From contig JAQVDY010000005.1 in assembly GCA_028698215.1 (NCBI GenBank), positions 8,108-72,107 on the forward strand: a stretch of 64,000 nt of DNA. The letters are read 5' to 3'. The notes under the pieces were generated by a model. The model searched no databases. It was not told the origin of the DNA and saw only the letters and a list, made by a program, of their open reading frames with translations. Source of the stretch: Actinomycetota bacterium (lineage in GTDB: Bacteria > Actinomycetota > Humimicrobiia > Humimicrobiales > Humimicrobiaceae). Below, piece by piece: positions 25,168 to 42,286 of this stretch. The first letter of the stretch is position 1, and each line of letters starts with the position of its first letter. Both the position numbers and the translations under genes were made by a program.

Positions 25168-25245
25168 TGGTCGGGACGAGAGGATTTGAACCTCCGACCC
25201 CCAGTACCCCATACTGGTGCGCTAGCCAAACTGCGCCACGTCCCG
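25168..25245 (-). tRNA. tRNA-Pro (anticodon GGG), CCA encoded
   Basis: Hand-folded cloverleaf. Acceptor CGGGACG/CGTCCCG, D-stem GCGC/GCGC, anticodon stem CCAGT/ACTGG with loop AUGGGGU (anticodon GGG), T-stem GGAGG/CCTCT with loop TTCAAAT, discriminator A, then CCA. Confidence 0.85.
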
Positions 25246-33351: not shown

Positions 33352-33558
33352 TTGACAAAGAACATTTATTCTGATAATTTATAATTATTCTTAACGCAGG
33401 AGGCAACCTCTAAGAGAAGCTTGTTATTTTGACTGAAAAGAAAAAATACGAGTTAAAATCTTGGAGAGTCCCTAAGAAAAGCTTTAAGAGGGGCCCCGAG
33501 GTGTTTAGTAGCCTAAGGCTTTTAGCTAAGGCCAAAGATAACTCGGGGTTTTTATTTG
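33352..33558 (+). ncRNA. Candidate small RNA transcription unit (promoter plus strong terminator, no credible ORF)
   Basis: TTGACA (33352-33357), a 16-nt spacer, then ATAATT. Terminator CCCCGAG (33494-33500) ... CTCGGGG (33542-33548) followed by TTTTTATTT. The only ORF starts with TTG 25 nt after the AGGAGG and runs through the terminator into the convergent gene. Confidence 0.35.
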
Positions 33559-35618
33559 CCCAGAATCTGTGTCATCATTTCATCTACATTTCTAGTGGGA
33601 AATTTACAATCAAAATCACTGCACACATAGGCAGTAGCTTGATTTTGAAAACAATTGTAACTCTCGGTAAAACCGGTTAATTTGTCCAATTCAGCATTAT
33701 CCTGCGAGCAAGGTTTAAATATCAGGTTGACCTCAGGTAAATATTTCCGGTTTAACTGTCCCAGCAGTTCCCTGCTGTCTGGAGCATGATTTTGTCCGCA
33801 AATAATCACTTCCCTGGTTTCATAGTGCAGCAGAAAATAAGAATAAAGCATGAAGGTATAATATTGCGGATTTTGTTTTATGCTATATGAAAAAGACTCC
33901 AGTATTTTTTCCGCCAGCTGGGTTAATTTAGGATTATTAGTTAACTTAGACAGCCTTACCAGGTTCATCAAGCTAACCGAATTACCAGAAGGCAGCGATA
34001 CATCGCTGGCCTCTTTTTGCCTATAAATAACTGCCTCAGTATTAGAAGGGGTATAATATAAACCGCCCTGGCCCGAATCCAAAAATAGATTTAAGGTTTT
34101 TTGGTTTAATTGAATAGCAGCTTTTAGGTATCTGAGGTTAAAAGTGGCCTGATATAGCTCCAGCAGTCCCCACACTAAATAGGAATAATCATCAATTGTG
34201 GATGGAGCAGAAGACAAGCCATCATGCCAGCAGTGGTAAAGACCTTCTTCGGTCAGCATATGGTCCAAAATAAAATCTGCCCCCTTTTTAGCTGCTTCTA
34301 TATACAGCGGCCTTTCCAGCACCCTGCCCCCCTTGGCCAAGGCAGCCACCATAAGGCCATTCCAGTCAGCCAATATTTTCTGGTCTATGCAGGGATGAGG
34401 CCTTTTTTTCCGGGCAGAAAATAGTTTTCTAATAATGTCGGTAATCATATCTTCCAGCTGTTGAGGGTAAACCTTTAGCTTTTCAGCCAATTGACTCTTG
34501 CCCTGGCTAATATGAAGTATACCGGGCTCGCCCTTGTCATCCTTACAATCAATATTAAACACTGCTGCAGCTACTGAAGCCAACTCAGCACCCAAAGCCT
34601 TCTCCAGCTGTTGATAGCTCCAAAGATAGTAAATACCCTCCTCCCCCTGGCTGTCAGCATCAATTGATGAAAAAAACCCGCCCTTGTCGCTGGTTAAATC
34701 ACTCAATACGAAACTGAATATATCTTTGGCAGTAAGAGCGTAAGATTGGTTTCCTGTAACTAAAAAAGCGTCCAGATAAACAATGGACAGCAGGGCCTGA
34801 TCGTATAACATCTTTTCAAAATGGGGCGTTAGCCACTGCTGGTCTGTAGAGTAACGATGAAAGCCATACCCTACATGATCCCATATTCCCCCATTTCTCA
34901 TATTATCAAGGGTATTAGTAACCATGCCTATGGCAGGCTGGTACTGGTGTTTGGTGCCATACCTTAGCAAAAAAATTAAATTAGAAACCTGGGGGAATTT
35001 AGGATGTATGCCAAATCCTCCGTTCTGTTTATCAAACCAGTTTTCAAGCTGTTGTAAGGCATCTTTAAAAATATATTCATCCAGGCTGGCCTTATTCTCA
35101 TATTTTGAGGCTTTTTGGAGGGCCTGTGTTATCTTGCCCGCCGATTTTTCAATTTCATCCCTTTTGCTTTCCCAAATTTGACTGATTTGGGGCAGTAATT
35201 TTAACAGGCCTACCCTTCCGTAACGGTCATGTTTGGGTATATAGGTAGCAGCAAAGAAAGGTTTACCTTCAGGAGTCATTACTACAGTCAGGGGCCAGCC
35301 TGAGCTGTCAGAAAGAATCTGGGCCACTGCCATATAGGTTTTGTCTATATCCGGCCTTTCTTCCCGGTCAACCTTTATGCTTATGTAGCTTTCATTTAGC
35401 AGCTGGGCTACCTGCTCATCTTCAAAACTTTCTTTTTCCATTACATGGCACCAATGGCAGGCGGAATAGCCAATGGATAAAAAAATGGGCTTATCTTGCT
35501 TGCGGGCAGCCTTAAAAGCTTTATCCCCCCAAGGATACCAACGCACGGGATTGGAGGCATGTTGAACCAAATAAGGACTTTTTTCATTTGCTAAAAAATT
35601 AGATTTATGTTTAGACAT
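33552..35618 (-). CDS. Thioredoxin-domain protein (DUF255/YyaL-like, with alpha/alpha-toroid C-terminal domain)
   Basis: N-terminal thioredoxin-like region with CHWCH. The long C-terminal domain resembles N-acylglucosamine-epimerase-like six-hairpin folds. Confidence 0.7.
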
Positions 35619-35632
35619 TTTAAACCTGCCTG

Positions 35633-37597
35633 TTAACCATTATATTTTAATAATCTTGCATTTATAGCTACAATTATGGTACTTAGGGACATAAGTGCTG
35701 CCCCTACTGCCGGATTTAACAATATGCCTACGGGATAAAGGATACCGGCAGCCAGCGGAATAGCAAAAATATTGTAACCGGTTGCCCAACCCAAATTTTG
35801 CAGCATTTTCCGGTAGGTGGCTTTAGATAGACCGATTAAATCCACAATATCCTGGGGATTACTTCGAACCAGTATTATATCGGCGGTTTCAATAGCTATG
35901 TCAGTGCCTGCTCCTATAGCTATGCCTATGTCTGCTTCAGCCAATGCCGGGGCATCATTTACCCCATCACCAGTCATGGCCACGGTAAAGCCCCTTGATT
36001 TAACTTCCGCTATTTTATCTGCTTTCTCTTCAGGCAATACTTCTGCAAAAAATTCATCAATACCCAACTGGCCCGCTACCCATTGAGCTACTTTTTTCTG
36101 GTCACCGGTAAGCATCATGGATTTGATATTCATTTTTTTTAGCTGCTCTATGGCTGGTTTTGATTCATCCCTGACTATATCGGCTAAAGCTATAGCTCCT
36201 GAAAGCTTATCATCAACCAGTACAAATACAATAGTCTTGCCTTCCCCGCTTAACTGGTCCAGCTTTTCATTGTTTACTTTAATATGGTTTTCCCTCAGGT
36301 ACCCGGAGCTGACGATTTTTACCTGTTTGGACCCAATCTCTGCCTGCACCCCCTTACCGGTTATAGATTTAAAGCTGGTAATTTCTAATTTTTCATCAAC
36401 AGATTGTGCTATGGCCCGGGCAATGGGATGCTCGGATTCCAATTCCACGGAAGCGGCATACTGTAATATCTGTTTAGCCTCATATTCAGGGTTTAGCGAA
36501 ATATAATTAGTTACCCCAAATTTGCCTTTGGTAAGGGTTCCAGTTTTATCAAAAATTACAGCATCAATCTTTCTGGCTGCCTCAAAAGCAGTGCGGTCCC
36601 TTATAATAAAGCCATGGCGGGCGGAAAGCACGGTAGAAACAGCTACCACCAGAGGAATAGCCAAACCCAGGGCATGAGGGCAGGTTATAACCATAACTGT
36701 TACCGACCTTTCCAGGGAAAAAGCAAAATCTCTGCCCATAGCTACCAGCCAAATCAACAAGGTTATGGTTCCAGCAGCAATAGCAGCCAGAGTTAACCAT
36801 TGTGCAGCCCGGTTAGCCAAATCCTGTGTCCTGGATTTATTTTGCTGTGCCTGCTTTACCCTATCAATAATAAGTGATAAAAATGATTCCTTTCCTGTTT
36901 TAGCTATACTTATCTTAAGGGAACCTTCACCGTTTATAGATCCTCCTATAACCTGGTCCTGTTTATCCTTTTTTACCGGATTGGATTCTCCAGTAAGCAT
37001 GGATTCGTCAACCGTAGATTGGCCATCCAATACAATCCCATCTGCAGGTATCTTCTCCCCTGGCCTAACCAGCAGGATATCACCCTTGCCTATTTGTTCC
37101 AGGCTTACCTCCTCTACCTGCCCTTGGGAATTTATGCGATGGGCTTGTGTAGGCATTAACTGGGCCAGCTGTTCCAAAGCCCTGGATGCTCCCATCACCG
37201 ATTTCATCTCGATCCAGTGACCCAGCAGCATAATATCTATTAGCGTAGCCAACTCCCAAAAAAACATTTTGCCTTCTATGCCCAGTACTACTGCTGCACT
37301 GTAAACAAAAGCTACAGTTATAGCCAACCCTATTAAAGTCATCATGCCCGGCTGACGCTGCCGCAATTCTAAGAACAAACCCTTTAGGAAGGGCCACCCT
37401 CCATAAAAAAAGATAAAAGTACTCAAAGCCAAGAGAAAATATTGGTCATAGGGAAAACCAATTCTGCCTTCTATTCGGAGTAGCCTCTGGATTATAGGGG
37501 ATAATAGAAGTATAGGTACCGTAACTATAATCGATACCAAAAACCTTTTTTTAAACTCATGTACCATATGGTTATGATGTGAATGGTTTTCTTTCAT
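35633..37597 (-). CDS. Heavy-metal P1B-type ATPase, CopB-like (His-rich N-terminus, CPH motif)
   Basis: N-terminal [14 protein letters not shown] ([10 protein letters not shown]), DKTGTLT phosphorylation site, [12 protein letters not shown] hinge. Confidence 0.8.
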
Positions 37598-37668
37598 GCC
37601 ATCCCTTTTAAAACCATAATAATTAATATTATAATATATAATTATATTAATTTTGGGGAGGCTGTAAA

Positions 37669-39012
37669 ATTTACCCCTTAAGGCATAGGTCAGTCAAAGA
37701 AGCAAACCCTGGTTCCGGCCCGGTAGCCTACTGGATGAGCAGAGACCAGAGGGTGCAGGATAACTGGGCTCTCCTGTTTGCCCAGGAGTTGGCACTTAAG
37801 GCAGCAAAACCCCTGATAGTATTTTTTTTCTTGGACTATAGTTTTTTAGAAGCATTGCCAAAACATTATTGTTTTATGCTGGAAGGGCTGAAACAGGTCC
37901 AAAAGAACTTAGCGGCAAAAAATATATCTTTTCATATAGTCGAAAATCCACTGCATCAGGTAAAAACTTTTCTTAACCACTATAATATCACAGCCCTGGT
38001 AACCGATTTTGATCCTCTCAAACCTAAAAGAAATTGGCTGCAGCAAGTATCTTCAGCGGTTAAGACCCCGGTATTTGAAGTTGATGCCCACAACCTGGTA
38101 CCCTGCTGGCTGGCTTCAGGCAAGCAAGAGTATGCTGCCTATACTTTAAGGCCAAAACTTAACCGGTTAAAGGACCGGTATCTAAATAAATTTCCACCCT
38201 TAAAGAAACAGCCATCCCTATTTCCAGATTCCTACCACGACCCTGGCTGGGATAGTATTTATAAAAAATTAAAAATAACTAAAAACATGCTCGACAAGTT
38301 CAGGGTAAGCCCTGGAGAAAGGAAAGCTTTTAAAACCCTGGAATATTTCCTGGAAAACAAATTAGAAGATTACAGCCAAAATAGAAATGATCCCAGCCTT
38401 GATGCTACTTCCGATCTCTCCCCTTATCTGCATTTTGGCCAAATATCTGCCCAAAGGATAGTGCAGGAAACATTAAAATTTAAACCGGGCATTTCACGTG
38501 ATTCATTTTTAGAGGAACTTATAGTACGCAGGGAACTAGCTGATAATTTCTGTTATTACAACCCTAACTATAATAGGTTTAAAGGGTTTCCAAAATGGTC
38601 TCAGCAGACCTTGCTGGAACATCAGAAAGACCACCGCAGCTATATTTACAGCCTGAAACAGCTGGAGGAAGCTCAAACCCATGATATTATATGGAATGCA
38701 GCTCAGACCGAAATGCTTCTAACCGGACGCATGCATGGCTACCTCAGGATGTACTGGGCTAAACAGATACTGCAGTGGACCCCAGACCCTGCACTAGCTT
38801 TGGAATATGCCCTTTACCTAAACAACCATTATATGCTGGATGGCCGCGACCCCAATGGTTATACTGGAGTTGCTTGGAGCATAGGAGGGGTGCATGACCG
38901 GGCCTGGAACCAGAGAGAGGTCCTGGGTAAAATAAGGTATATGTCCGCAGGGGGACTAAAAAGAAAATTTGACATTGAAGCATATTTAAAAAAAATCCAA
39001 AATTTAACCTAA
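37669..39012 (+). CDS. Class II CPD photolyase, likely initiating at a non-canonical ATT codon (tool ORF starts at ATG 37735)
   Basis: The protein matches class II photolyase throughout ([14 protein letters not shown]..., C-terminal FAD domain [25 protein letters not shown]). The 66 nt upstream of the ATG are in frame and encode ...[10 protein letters not shown], matching the conserved N-terminus recalled for Methanosarcina photolyase ([14 protein letters not shown]). An in-frame ATT at 37669 lies 7 nt after SD GGGGAGG (37655-37661). No ATG, GTG or TTG lies between the TAA at 37648 and 37735. Confidence 0.8.
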
Positions 39013-39086
39013 AGAGTTAACTTAAATATTGGAATATCATATTAACAGGTCTATAATCATAGTTGTAATCATCTAATCTAAGCAAT

Positions 39087-39902
39087 ATGAGAAGGCCTTA
39101 TTCCAGGGATTTAATTAAGTTAAGCAAACTGATTTCCCTCAGAGGCAGAAAAACACTAATTACGGGGGCTGGATCGGGAATCGGAAGGGCTATTGCCAAA
39201 AGATTTGCTGAAGCCGGTTCAGACCTGATGCTTTTAGATATTGATCAACCAGGCTTAAGCCAGACCAGGGAAATCTTAAATCATTTTACCTGCCTCAAAC
39301 ACCTTTACACCATAGATTTAACCAGCAAAAAAGATATAGACAGCTACTGGGAAAGCCTGGGCACTGAATTACCGGATATCCTAATAAATAATGTTGGGAT
39401 CTACCCTTTTAAGGATTTCCTGGAGATGGAGCCGGATTACCTGCAACAGATTATGGATATAAATTTAAACTCTGCCATATGGATGTGCCAGAAATTTATA
39501 AAAAGCAGAATGAACAGGGGCGGCATAATTATAAATACCTCATCCATAGAAGCTCTCCTGCCCTTTAAAGAGCATCTGGCCCACTATAGTATAACCAAGC
39601 TGGGTATCATAGGCCTAACCAGGTCATTGGCCAGAGACTATGGGAAAATGGGATTCAGGATAAATGTTGTGCTTCCAGGGGCAATAAAAACCAAAGGTAC
39701 GGATAACCTGGTAAAATATGCTTTAAAAAAATTCAAATGGGGTTGGATTAAGACCGGCTATGATTTTCAATCCAGACTGGCATTAGGCCGCTGGGGCTAT
39801 CCGGATGAAGTGGCCAAGGTAGTCTTGTTTCTGGCTAGCGATATGGCCAGCTATATACAGGGAGTTATGCTGCCGGTAGATGGAGGTTTTTTATCTTCCT
39901 AA
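39087..39902 (+). CDS. Short-chain dehydrogenase/reductase (SDR) family oxidoreductase
   Basis: TLITGAGSGIGRA (TGxxxGxG), NNVG, and catalytic YxxxK (YSITKLG). Confidence 0.8.
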   Translation: MRRPYSRDLIKLSKLISLRGRKTLITGAGSGIGRAIAKRFAEAGSDLMLLDIDQPGLSQTREILNHFTCLKHLYTIDLTSKKDIDSYWESLGTELPDILINNVGIYPFKDFLEMEPDYLQQIMDINLNSAIWMCQKFIKSRMNRGGIIINTSSIEALLPFKEHLAHYSITKLGIIGLTRSLARDYGKMGFRINVVLPGAIKTKGTDNLVKYALKKFKWGWIKTGYDFQSRLALGRWGYPDEVAKVVLFLASDMASYIQGVMLPVDGGFLSS

Positions 39903-42286
39903 ATTTGGGTTATAATACCATCTTTTTCAAACAGGCTAATAAAAACTGCAACTATTTCAGGGTCAAATTGGGTGCCGGAACACATCTTTATTTCCTCTAA
40001 TGCTTCCTTAAAACCTAGGGCTTTGCGGTACGGCCGGTCATTGGTCATAGCATCAAAAGTGTCTACTATAGATATAATACGGGAAAGTAATGGTATTTGT
40101 ACCCCTTTTAAGCCTCTGGGATACCCGCTTCCATCCCAGTTTTCATGATGGCATAGTATAGCTTCAGCAATAATATTAAGCTCAGGGCTCTGGCTGGCAA
40201 TGCGGTACCCTATCTCAGGGTGTTTCTTTATAATATCCCACTCTTTAAGGGACAATTTATCCGGTTTTAATATTATATGATCAGCAATAGCTATCTTCCC
40301 AATATCATGAAGGGTGGCCAGCAGGCTTAGTTCATCTAAGCTTGAATCAGCCAGTCCCAGGCACCGGCCTGTCTCCCTGGCCAGCCTTTTCATTCTTTGC
40401 ATATGCTCTTCAGTTTCATAATCCCTCTCTTCCAGGGCTTTTTCCAGGGAAGAAATCATCCTGCTCCGGGCGCTTTTAGTCTCAACTAACTTATGCCTAT
40501 ACATCTGGTCTTCGGCTTCTTTGATGAGAGTTTTTAAATCAGTAGGGGCTAATTGTTTGCAGGCACACCCTAAAGATATGCTTAAGGTAAGTCGTTTTTC
40601 GCTTTCCTGGTCGCATCTTTGTTTTATTCTTTCTATTACCTTTTGGGCATCTTCTTTAGAAGTATTTGGCAATATGGCTATAAATTCATCTCCTCCCCAA
40701 CGAGCTACAATATCTTCTTTTCTAAAGCAATATTTTAGTATTCTGGCAATTTTACACAGCAACCGGTCCCCATGACTGTGCCCAAAAGTATCATTGATAA
40801 GCTTAAGGCCATTAACGTCACCAATAATGATGCTTAGGGGGAGCATTCTCCCGGTATCCAGCCTTTTTAATTCTTCTTCAAAAAAGTACCGGTTATAAAG
40901 GCCGGTTAAGCTGTCATGGAAGCTTAAGTACTTAATCTTTTTTTCTGCCAGCTTCCTATTATTTATATCTCTTACTATACCCTCAAAATAGGTATGGCCA
41001 TCCTTACCCTGCACCGACCAGATGCTGGCTTCTACCCATATTGGATTTCCGTCTTTAGTAATAAATTGAAATTCTTGCCTATGGTTATCCAAAGATTCAG
41101 ATTTTAAATTTTGGCTAATGTTTATCAACGGTAATTCTTGCTTGCTGCTGCAGTTAAAAATATTCAGCATGGACTGGTTTACTTCTATATAATTACCATC
41201 CATATCTACCCTGAAAATGCCATCCAGGGAATTTTTAAAAATAGATTTATATCTTTCTTCAGCCAGTCTTTGTTCCGTGACATCATTAAATATTAAGACT
41301 TTGCCTACAATATTTTGGTCTATATCCATAAAGGGATTAATGCTCAAGGAAAAAATGCCGGGCGTATTAGGAAGGGCAACACTATCAATAATTTCAAACC
41401 CGCTGGATACCCTGGTTCTTATTTCTGTCCACCCAGGCCAGATTTCCGGCAGTGTTTTACCTAAAGGATTACCTGAGTCGAAACCTTTTAAGGCCAGCTG
41501 GTTAGCATAGGCAATACGGTCATTTTTATCTATAGTTATTACCATATCCTGGTTATTTTCCAAATCAGGGTCTAGGCTCATAGGTATGAAATTCCCGATT
41601 TTTAACCTAACAAAACCATAAAGAAGGACAGCGCTGCCTAAAATTAAGCCCAAAGGAGTAAGTTTTAAGTCAAAACGGTTAAAGAGAGTAAAAATATCCA
41701 GCAAGCTAAATAAGGCAGGAAAGGTTAAGGCAGCAATTAAAATTATTGCATTGCCTCGAAATACTTTTTGCTTGGCTGTCAGCAGTTTGGCCAGCATAAT
41801 TAAACCTGTTAAAGTAAGTAAACCGCAATATGATACCCATACCCAGAACCAAATACCGTAATTGAAGTCAATATAGGTCAGTATTCCAATATGGTTAAAA
41901 GAAATACCGGTCCAAACCAAACCATGGTAATGATTGGTAAATACCAATAATAGAGTGGCAGCTGGAACCAAACCTAGCAGCATTATTTTTTTTATATTAA
42001 GCCATTGTGAATACCCGGTATAACATAACAGTAATAAAAAAAAGCTTAAAGGCAAAGATGTAATACCCGCATATTTTGTCATATAAAACCATAACTTTAT
42101 ATTCTCTGACAAGGTGAGCAATTCAAAATAATGGCTCAATATCCAAATAAAACTTCCAAGAAAGACAGCTATGCCAAATTTATAGCCGTAAATATTTTTG
42201 AACCTGTAAAGAAAAAATATTCCGCCCAATGTAATCATTAATCCAAACATTAAGGCAGAAATATAGGCAGTAATTGCTGGGCTCAT
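39899..42286 (-). CDS. Membrane sensor, GGDEF diguanylate cyclase plus HD-GYP phosphodiesterase (with PAS)
   Basis: N-terminal multi-TM sensor region (about 7 TM), a PAS-like segment, RWGGDEF, then an HD-GYP domain (LHDIGK ... HHENWDGSGYP). Confidence 0.8.
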   Translation of the reverse strand: MSPAITAYISALMFGLMITLGGIFFLYRFKNIYGYKFGIAVFLGSFIWILSHYFELLTLSENIKLWFYMTKYAGITSLPLSFFLLLLCYTGYSQWLNIKKIMLLGLVPAATLLLVFTNHYHGLVWTGISFNHIGILTYIDFNYGIWFWVWVSYCGLLTLTGLIMLAKLLTAKQKVFRGNAIILIAALTFPALFSLLDIFTLFNRFDLKLTPLGLILGSAVLLYGFVRLKIGNFIPMSLDPDLENNQDMVITIDKNDRIAYANQLALKGFDSGNPLGKTLPEIWPGWTEIRTRVSSGFEIIDSVALPNTPGIFSLSINPFMDIDQNIVGKVLIFNDVTEQRLAEERYKSIFKNSLDGIFRVDMDGNYIEVNQSMLNIFNCSSKQELPLINISQNLKSESLDNHRQEFQFITKDGNPIWVEASIWSVQGKDGHTYFEGIVRDINNRKLAEKKIKYLSFHDSLTGLYNRYFFEEELKRLDTGRMLPLSIIIGDVNGLKLINDTFGHSHGDRLLCKIARILKYCFRKEDIVARWGGDEFIAILPNTSKEDAQKVIERIKQRCDQESEKRLTLSISLGCACKQLAPTDLKTLIKEAEDQMYRHKLVETKSARSRMISSLEKALEERDYETEEHMQRMKRLARETGRCLGLADSSLDELSLLATLHDIGKIAIADHIILKPDKLSLKEWDIIKKHPEIGYRIASQSPELNIIAEAILCHHENWDGSGYPRGLKGVQIPLLSRIISIVDTFDAMTNDRPYRKALGFKEALEEIKMCSGTQFDPEIVAVFISLFEKDGIITQI

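Follow-up and report, generated by a model that had tools for sequence, protein, structure and literature searches.

A conserved AUU codon as the probable start of a class II photolyase gene in an uncultured actinobacterial lineage

AUU is a weak start codon against which initiation factor 3 (IF3) discriminates (10.1101/063800; PMC9723500). In E. coli it yields 1-2% of the AUG level, and only infC and pcnB are confirmed to start with it (10.1101/063800). In E. faecalis, ebpA starts at an ATT and not at the downstream ATG of its annotation, and this ATT attenuates expression (PMC4447247); in Listeria an ATG-to-ATT mutation of rsbW reduces translation (PMC13068326). Within the Actinomycetota, Streptomyces sigR has a GTC start that is repressed by IF3 and conserved across species (PMC5472188). 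Here we describe a gene for a class II cyclobutane pyrimidine dimer (CPD) photolyase within 64,000 nucleotides of DNA from an Actinomycetota bacterium of the Humimicrobiaceae (GenBank assembly GCA_028698215.1, contig JAQVDY010000005.1, positions 8,108 to 72,107), a stretch that we call the window. Comparison with homologues and close relatives makes it likely that this gene is translated from an AUU at 37669, giving a 447-residue enzyme, probably at a low, capped rate.

The coding sequence occupies 37669-39012 of the plus strand (447 codons and TAA), and its start region was read over 37400-39300 with all three forward frames translated. An in-frame TAA at 37648-37650 closes the photolyase frame on its 5′ side, with more in-frame TAA codons farther upstream, and no in-frame ATG, GTG or TTG occurs between this stop and the ATG at 37735. 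From the TAA the frame runs TTT TGG GGA GGC TGT AAA (FWGGCK) to an ATT at 37669-37671, which we propose as the initiation codon, read as Met, on the basis of the homologues' start position, the Shine-Dalgarno (SD) sequence and the sister lineages. The codons that follow, from TAC CCC TTA AGG CAT AGG TCA to CCG GTA GCC TAC TGG, lead directly into the first in-frame ATG (37735-37737, plus strand), which encodes the internal Met23 and is the start in the JGI annotation (425 aa) and in a mechanical list of open reading frames (ORFs). The first in-frame GTG (37753-37755, plus strand) encodes the internal Val29 and is the start in Logan/ENA gene calls (419 aa). A frameshift masking a canonical start was considered and rejected, the other two frames having several stops upstream of 37735. 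An earlier note on this DNA, made from its letters alone, had reported the TAA, the lack of ATG, GTG or TTG as far as ATG 37735, and an ATT placed 7 nt after GGGGAGG. Our reading and translation confirm each of these points, and its description of the sequence is accurate in all details.

The SD sequence GGGGAGG (37655-37661, plus strand) is separated from ATT by a 7-nt spacer (37662-37668). Counting both strands, the window has 112 copies of the pentamer GGAGG, most of them within genes, and the chance of one ending 5-10 nt before a given site is ~0.005. An SD can be recognised before about half of the genes in the window, most often as a 4-mer (AAGG, AGGA or GGAG), and GGGGAGG is among the strongest. 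Before ATG 37735 there is no SD at a usable distance (ccggtagcctactggATG upstream), and at GTG 37753 an AGAGG abuts the codon without a spacer. Elsewhere in the 64 kb every GGAGG followed by ATT sits inside a longer canonical ORF, giving no sign there of genome-wide ATT use; infC is not within the window. Relatives that start with TTG, GTG or ATG have a conserved GTGGA motif at a distance of ~20 nt or more from their start codon, with an A-rich spacer between the two, and only the ATT lineages have the motif at SD distance. This arrangement fits a strong SD that would compensate for a weak start codon.

The position of the start is defined by the N-termini of homologues, for which we surveyed the best 120 database homologues together with cluster members. 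Exactly 21 residues precede the W of the WMSRDQR block in 61 of ~113 homologous proteins, making this the commonest extension, and nearly all others have 20-28; not one of the ~113 starts at the MSRDQR Met. ATT 37669 lies exactly 21 codons 5′ of TGG 37732 (W22), at the family's commonest start position, and in a 51-sequence alignment it falls on Met1 of three homologues (P0002, P0003 and P0004). Within that alignment R5 and G17 never vary, and conservation reaches 90% or more at R7, P18 and W22. The window protein has all five residues, upstream of Met23, itself a conserved internal residue of the WMSRDQR block in homologues. The earlier note had held that a conserved N-terminus is encoded 5′ of the first ATG and had looked to orthologues for 20-25 aa before WMSRDQR; the observed extensions and the invariance of R5 and G17 sustain both ideas.

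The codons used at this position were surveyed at 160 orthologous loci from GTDB species genomes and JGI metagenomes, of which 135 contained both the motif and a closed frame. In every one of these 135 other loci a canonical start lies at least 18 codons before the W, mostly at 21 (ATG 113, GTG 14, TTG 8). Because all of them use ATG, GTG or TTG, ATT is a trait of one small actinobacterial clade and not of the photolyase family. The metagenome patterns that served to enlarge this survey, by way of the matches listed, were very general (DNFCYYN and MYWAK[QK]I), and no further members of the ATT clade were found among those matches. The two homologues with the shortest annotated N-termini were followed up and are miscalled starts. 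In locus L095 (GCA_007120425.1, P0005, ~1970-2035) the annotated ATG lies 8 codons before the W, and a TTG at -21 opens the conserved N-terminus MDIERSRKLKEG; in L096 (GCA_900175145.1, P0037, ~1975-2040) the annotated start is a TTG at -13, and an ATG at -21 gives MNQKRVRNLRSG.

Judged by its sequence, the gene encodes a full-length class II CPD photolyase. The ATT-started product scores 571.5 bits against the NCBIfam model TIGR00591 (phr2), above the curated cutoff of 550.05, and covers profile positions 17-453 of 453; against the class I, 8-hydroxy-5-deazaflavin (8-HDF) and cryptochrome family models it scores far under their cutoffs. Pfam PF00875 (DNA_photolyase) spans residues 19-177, and structures of the Methanosarcina mazei class II CPD photolyase (2xry and 8oet) align to residues 3-444 (E ~1e-146), both matches opening upstream of Met23. 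The WMSRDQR block is kept, as are W342, W363 and W370, which are invariant in the family alignment and which we take to be the class II electron-transfer Trp triad. An AlphaFold2 model built on the 51-sequence alignment (predicted local distance difference test score, pLDDT, 87; predicted template modelling score, pTM, 0.87) has an N-domain of alternating strands and helices and a helical C-domain, as in the class II architecture. In this model DSSP assigns strands to residues 6-10 and 19-22, with pLDDT 88-95 over the first 20 residues, and strand 19-22 is the first of the alpha/beta domain. Codons 6-22 (37684-37734, plus strand), which encode both predicted strands, lie wholly 5′ of the first ATG. 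The model therefore predicts the full-length two-domain architecture only with the ATT start, and a start at Met23 would lose the first strand.

Public databases disagree on this gene. The 90%-identity protein cluster holds four versions, from JGI (425 aa), Logan/ENA (419 aa, two variants) and NCBI (447 aa), so that the same DNA has been given three starts: ATT 37669 by NCBI, ATG 37735 by JGI and GTG 37753 by Logan/ENA (proteins P0001, P0121, P0122 and P0123). Two of three gene callers thus missed the ATT, and both of the shorter products lack the first strand of the fold. The NCBI protein MDD3776523.1 (447 aa, beginning MYPLRHRSV) equals the window ATT ORF except for M in place of I at position 1. 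As the protein matches this ORF and all ten assemblies that we fetched have ATT, the NCBI record most likely starts the protein there. In these ten contigs (JGI 3300001682, ENA ERZ25038380, SRR27370449-53, SRR34790385, SRR22315504 and ERR14141147) the gene has the same neighbours, and over 4.3-7.3 kb they match the window at 99.77-100% identity. Positions 37598-37800 are identical to the window in 10/10 assemblies, from at least 5 sequencing projects, though several haplotypes defined by single-nucleotide polymorphisms (SNPs) are present elsewhere. Across 34735-42012, compared with contigs L001-L010, the window differs from the JGI contig at 17 of 7278 nt and equals Logan contigs L007 and L009; the haplotype SNPs are concentrated in the ATPase gene (36302-36706). 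Among GTDB representative genomes the best match is only 57% identical, so the window species or its contig is not included there.

The nearest other homologue (P0002, 64% protein identity; NCBI MCG9479618.1, GCA_022396035.1) begins MNYPRHR, and its Logan twin P0124 begins MEGPDINYPRHR. At this locus (L092/L091) the orthologous codon is an ATT, which GTGGAGGG precedes by 8 nt. This ATT is the start that NCBI gives the L092 protein, though GTG and TTG are available, and Prodigal chose the GTG inside the SD. A second relative, L093 (GCA_034520345.1), has the same layout of GTGGAGGG, 8 nt and ATT, with substitutions in the spacer and early codons. The distance from a conserved TTTTG to ATT is 13 nt in the window and 14 nt in L092 and L093. 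Because of this 1-nt length difference between SD and ATT, the reading frame 5′ of ATT is not conserved, while from the ATT on the frame is shared. Where L092 has the GTG, GGG is found in the window, and there the frame is closed by TAA. In L093 (JAXHNQ010000011.1, 2628-5111) gene calling breaks the photolyase into pieces of 122 and 349 aa and the dehydrogenase into three, and leaves the GGDEF/HD gene fragmented as well, which looks like assembly frameshift error rather than real decay.

These loci share a gene order of a thioredoxin-like DsbH, a divergent heavy-metal P-type ATPase, the photolyase, a short-chain dehydrogenase and a seven-transmembrane (7TM)-PAS-GGDEF-HD protein. The five-gene neighbourhood spans 33552-42286 of the window and is kept in related actinobacterial metagenome-assembled genomes (L092, L093, L094 and L177); the order is also present in the next relatives L095 and L011. 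The ATPase call in L092 is only 289 aa. Among the next syntenic relatives, L094 (P0003) and L095 (P0005) have TTG at -21, L177 (P0004) has GTG and L011 has ATG. In a neighbour-joining tree the three ATT genes group together (197/200 bootstraps) within a clade of seven (185/200), and the simplest reading is a single origin of ATT in the common ancestor of the three lineages. Six of the seven syntenic members (window, L092, L093, L094, L095, L177 and L011) use a non-ATG start (ATT in three, TTG in two, GTG in one), compared with ATG in 113/135 loci (84%) elsewhere, which suggests a clade-wide tendency to weak initiation of the photolyase gene.

Taken as a whole, the locus carries the sequence-level marks of AUU-start genes of the infC/pcnB/ebpA type: the frame has no canonical start, conserved coding sequence lies 5′ of the first ATG, ATT stands at the orthologous start position with an SD at 5-10 nt, and, in a gene under purifying selection, the ATT is kept in L092/L091 and L093, relatives that also have an in-frame GTG 5 codons upstream. 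The readings that dispense with ATT differ in how well they accommodate this. A sequencing or assembly error concealing an ordinary ATG, GTG or TTG, which the earlier note had offered together with a frameshift as its alternative, draws only on the prior expectation that a missing start usually reflects an error. It is excluded, as far as assemblies can show, because ten independent assemblies, differing from one another by SNPs elsewhere, share an identical start region; with the stops that fill the other two upstream frames, and with two related species having ATT at the same codon, the probability left to it is negligible. Translation from ATG 37735 or GTG 37753 would yield a photolyase without its 22 or 28 N-terminal residues, the similarity upstream being residual. 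Two automatic gene callers made this choice, and the codons are the first ATG and GTG in frame, but no homologue begins there and Met23 is internal to a nearly invariant WMSRDQR. Neither codon has a properly placed SD, the product would lose strands 6-10 and 19-22 together with the first four PF00875 positions, and the invariant R5 and G17 are still encoded in the 22 codons upstream. We regard a downstream start as very improbable.

Several observations weigh against initiation at ATT. The case is built from comparative evidence, and the clean ATT example is carried by a single species-level population. The upstream frame is open in L092 and L093 and contains a GTG within the SD, 5 codons before ATT, as well as a TTG farther up; the ATT of these relatives could therefore be an internal Ile codon, which only the window species excludes. 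On this ground another unconventional route might be proposed, in which the sisters initiate at the GTG inside GTGGAGGG, possibly leaderless, and the window at a near-cognate AGG (37681 or 37687), GTC (37693) or GTA (37723). Prodigal's choice of that GTG, a TATATT-like box ~6 nt upstream of it (read by eye) and the precedent that GTC can start a gene in Actinomycetota, namely Streptomyces sigR (PMC5472188), speak for such a route. Yet the sister GTG is GGG in the closed frame of the window, the 1-nt indel between SD and ATT breaks conservation of the upstream frame, the evidence-based NCBI pipeline picked ATT in L092 despite the alternatives, and ATT alone has both the orthologous start position and an SD at the right distance, so that we give this route little weight. 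The window protein also has five singleton departures at otherwise invariant columns (a 1-residue deletion at ~92, D302N, K366Q, E369Q and F419L), the most of any sequence in the alignment (mean 0.8 and maximum 4 in the others). Constraint could have relaxed in the window lineage, and a recent loss of function there is possible. The start codon might then have decayed from ATG, TTG or GTG to ATT, leaving the gene untranslated or near silent, a young pseudogene with its body still intact. The canonical starts of all 135 other orthologues and the 1-2% yield of AUU in E. coli are in keeping with such decay. Against it, ATT is shared with two sister lineages, all ORFs are intact, and non-synonymous divergence (dN, 0.29, window versus L092) is low relative to synonymous divergence (dS, ~2.3; dN/dS ~0.13), with 4-fold sites 39% identical and hence saturated. 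By this measure the photolyase has stayed under purifying selection for as long as the window and L092 lineages have been apart, and a dN/dS of ~0.13 across saturated synonymous divergence argues that translation was not lost at their common ancestor. The SD is at optimal spacing in three lineages despite changes in the sequence and length of the spacer. Of 85 columns without variation in the other 50 sequences, the window protein keeps 80, and population SNPs in the gene comprise three synonymous changes (37812, 38182 and 38199) and one non-synonymous change (38251, D to N; codons read by hand). Decay of the start is accordingly an unlikely explanation, if a somewhat better one than a downstream or near-cognate start.

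Upstream of the gene, a consensus scan finds a promoter-like site on the plus strand (37607-37635; 10/12 matches) with a -35 box TTTAAA (37607-12), a 17-nt spacer and a -10 box TATAAT (37630-35). The GTATTATAATA block is conserved in 6/6 syntenic loci aligned. Transcription would begin near 37642, leaving a 5′ untranslated region of ~27 nt. In the same six loci (window 37630-37661, L092, L093, L094, L095 and L011) a TTTTG[G/T]GGA motif lies at a fixed ~15 nt downstream of the GTATTATAATA box. It acts as an SD only in the ATT lineages and is ~20 nt from the start in the TTG and ATG lineages, and it may have another role, for example as part of a transcription start region or as an operator. The minus strand has the region's best promoter match (TTTACA-16-TATAAT, 11/12, 37641-37668), which faces the divergent P-type ATPase gene (35633-37597). 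This match overlaps the photolyase SD-to-ATT spacer, and its -35 box is not conserved in L092 and L093. A hairpin can be drawn in which the SD pairs with codons 3-5 and AUU sits in the loop (window 37653-37681, UACCCCUU; L092 2984-3015, UAUCCACGA). Leader hairpins do not exceed shuffled controls in stability (z +1.35 for the window and -1.08 for L092), and the 99-nt leader region folds less well than 200/200 shuffles. An Rfam scan of the window gave no known leader or riboswitch before the photolyase, and a tRNA-Pro (GGG) at 25168-25245 on the minus strand is the sole RNA gene in the window by ARAGORN and Rfam.

For initiation at AUU 37669 we propose a model in which the conserved TATAAT promoter would produce a transcript with a short leader of ~27 nt, on which GGGGAGG and its 7-nt spacer would place the 30S subunit on the AUU. 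Initiator tRNA would read this codon as Met despite the third-position mismatch, and the strong, well-spaced SD would hold initiation at the correct codon. A poor codon, together with discrimination by IF3, would set a low ceiling on photolyase synthesis. The actual use of AUU, its lowering of expression and any link to IF3 are inferred. Photolyase is naturally scarce in E. coli, and by analogy the most likely role of the start would be a low ceiling on an enzyme needed in few copies; IF3 sensitivity of the start is likewise plausible by analogy with the described cases. A stronger proposal is that the AUU, beyond capping dosage, is a regulatory device selected in this clade, by which photolyase translation would be coupled to IF3 availability and to the opening of the hairpin between the SD and codons 3-5 (UACCCC in the window, UAUCCAC in the sisters), so that stress would induce a repair enzyme at the level of translation. 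Selection for clade-wide weak initiation would fit, because 6/7 genes of the syntenic clade start with a codon other than ATG. We consider this proposal rather doubtful. If the weak start were regulatory, through IF3 or a hairpin in the mRNA, it would represent a new control of photoreactivation, and this is speculative.

Among the papers searched, none links a photolyase to an ATT or AUU start. Public records already contain the ATT call, since the NCBI proteins of the window species and of P0002 correspond to these starts; the call is undescribed and at odds with JGI and Prodigal-based resources. The 425- and 419-aa versions would mislead structure prediction, family statistics and attempts at expression. 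The comparative test applied here, combining the family's start position, the SD spacing and the agreement of sister lineages, also revealed that two further photolyase entries in public databases have wrong starts. Few bacterial genes are listed as starting with AUU, and the locus is a well-supported addition whose codon is conserved across species; its product is a DNA-repair enzyme, not a regulator or translation factor, and it comes from an uncultured low-GC actinobacterial lineage. It offers a clean, conserved example of a non-canonical start and a useful lesson in annotation, not a new mechanism.

The photolyase gene resembles E. coli infC and pcnB in having an AUU start, a weak codon, behind an SD. 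The product of infC is IF3 itself, hence its autoregulation, whereas a photolyase has no such feedback, and the earlier note's hint at autoregulation of the infC kind finds no support here. The AUU start of infC is phylogenetically widespread; in contrast, the photolyase ATT is limited to a single small clade, and the rest of its large family uses ATG, GTG or TTG. With ebpA the gene shares both the annotation error, a downstream ATG having been called, and the same in silico signature; ebpA encodes a pilus tip protein of a Firmicute and is experimentally proven, whereas the photolyase case comes from sequence comparison. The likeness to sigR and to the ATG-to-ATT/ATA variants of rsbW is that of non-canonical starts setting protein dosage in stress-response genes, but those genes encode regulators whose stoichiometry with a partner matters and here the product is a repair enzyme. 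The closest counterpart of the protein itself, the class II photolyase of M. mazei, is homologous over residues 3-444 and has the same N-terminal length, and the Methanosarcina genes (L033, L036, L040, L049 and L051) differ in having ATG at the codon equivalent to the ATT described here.

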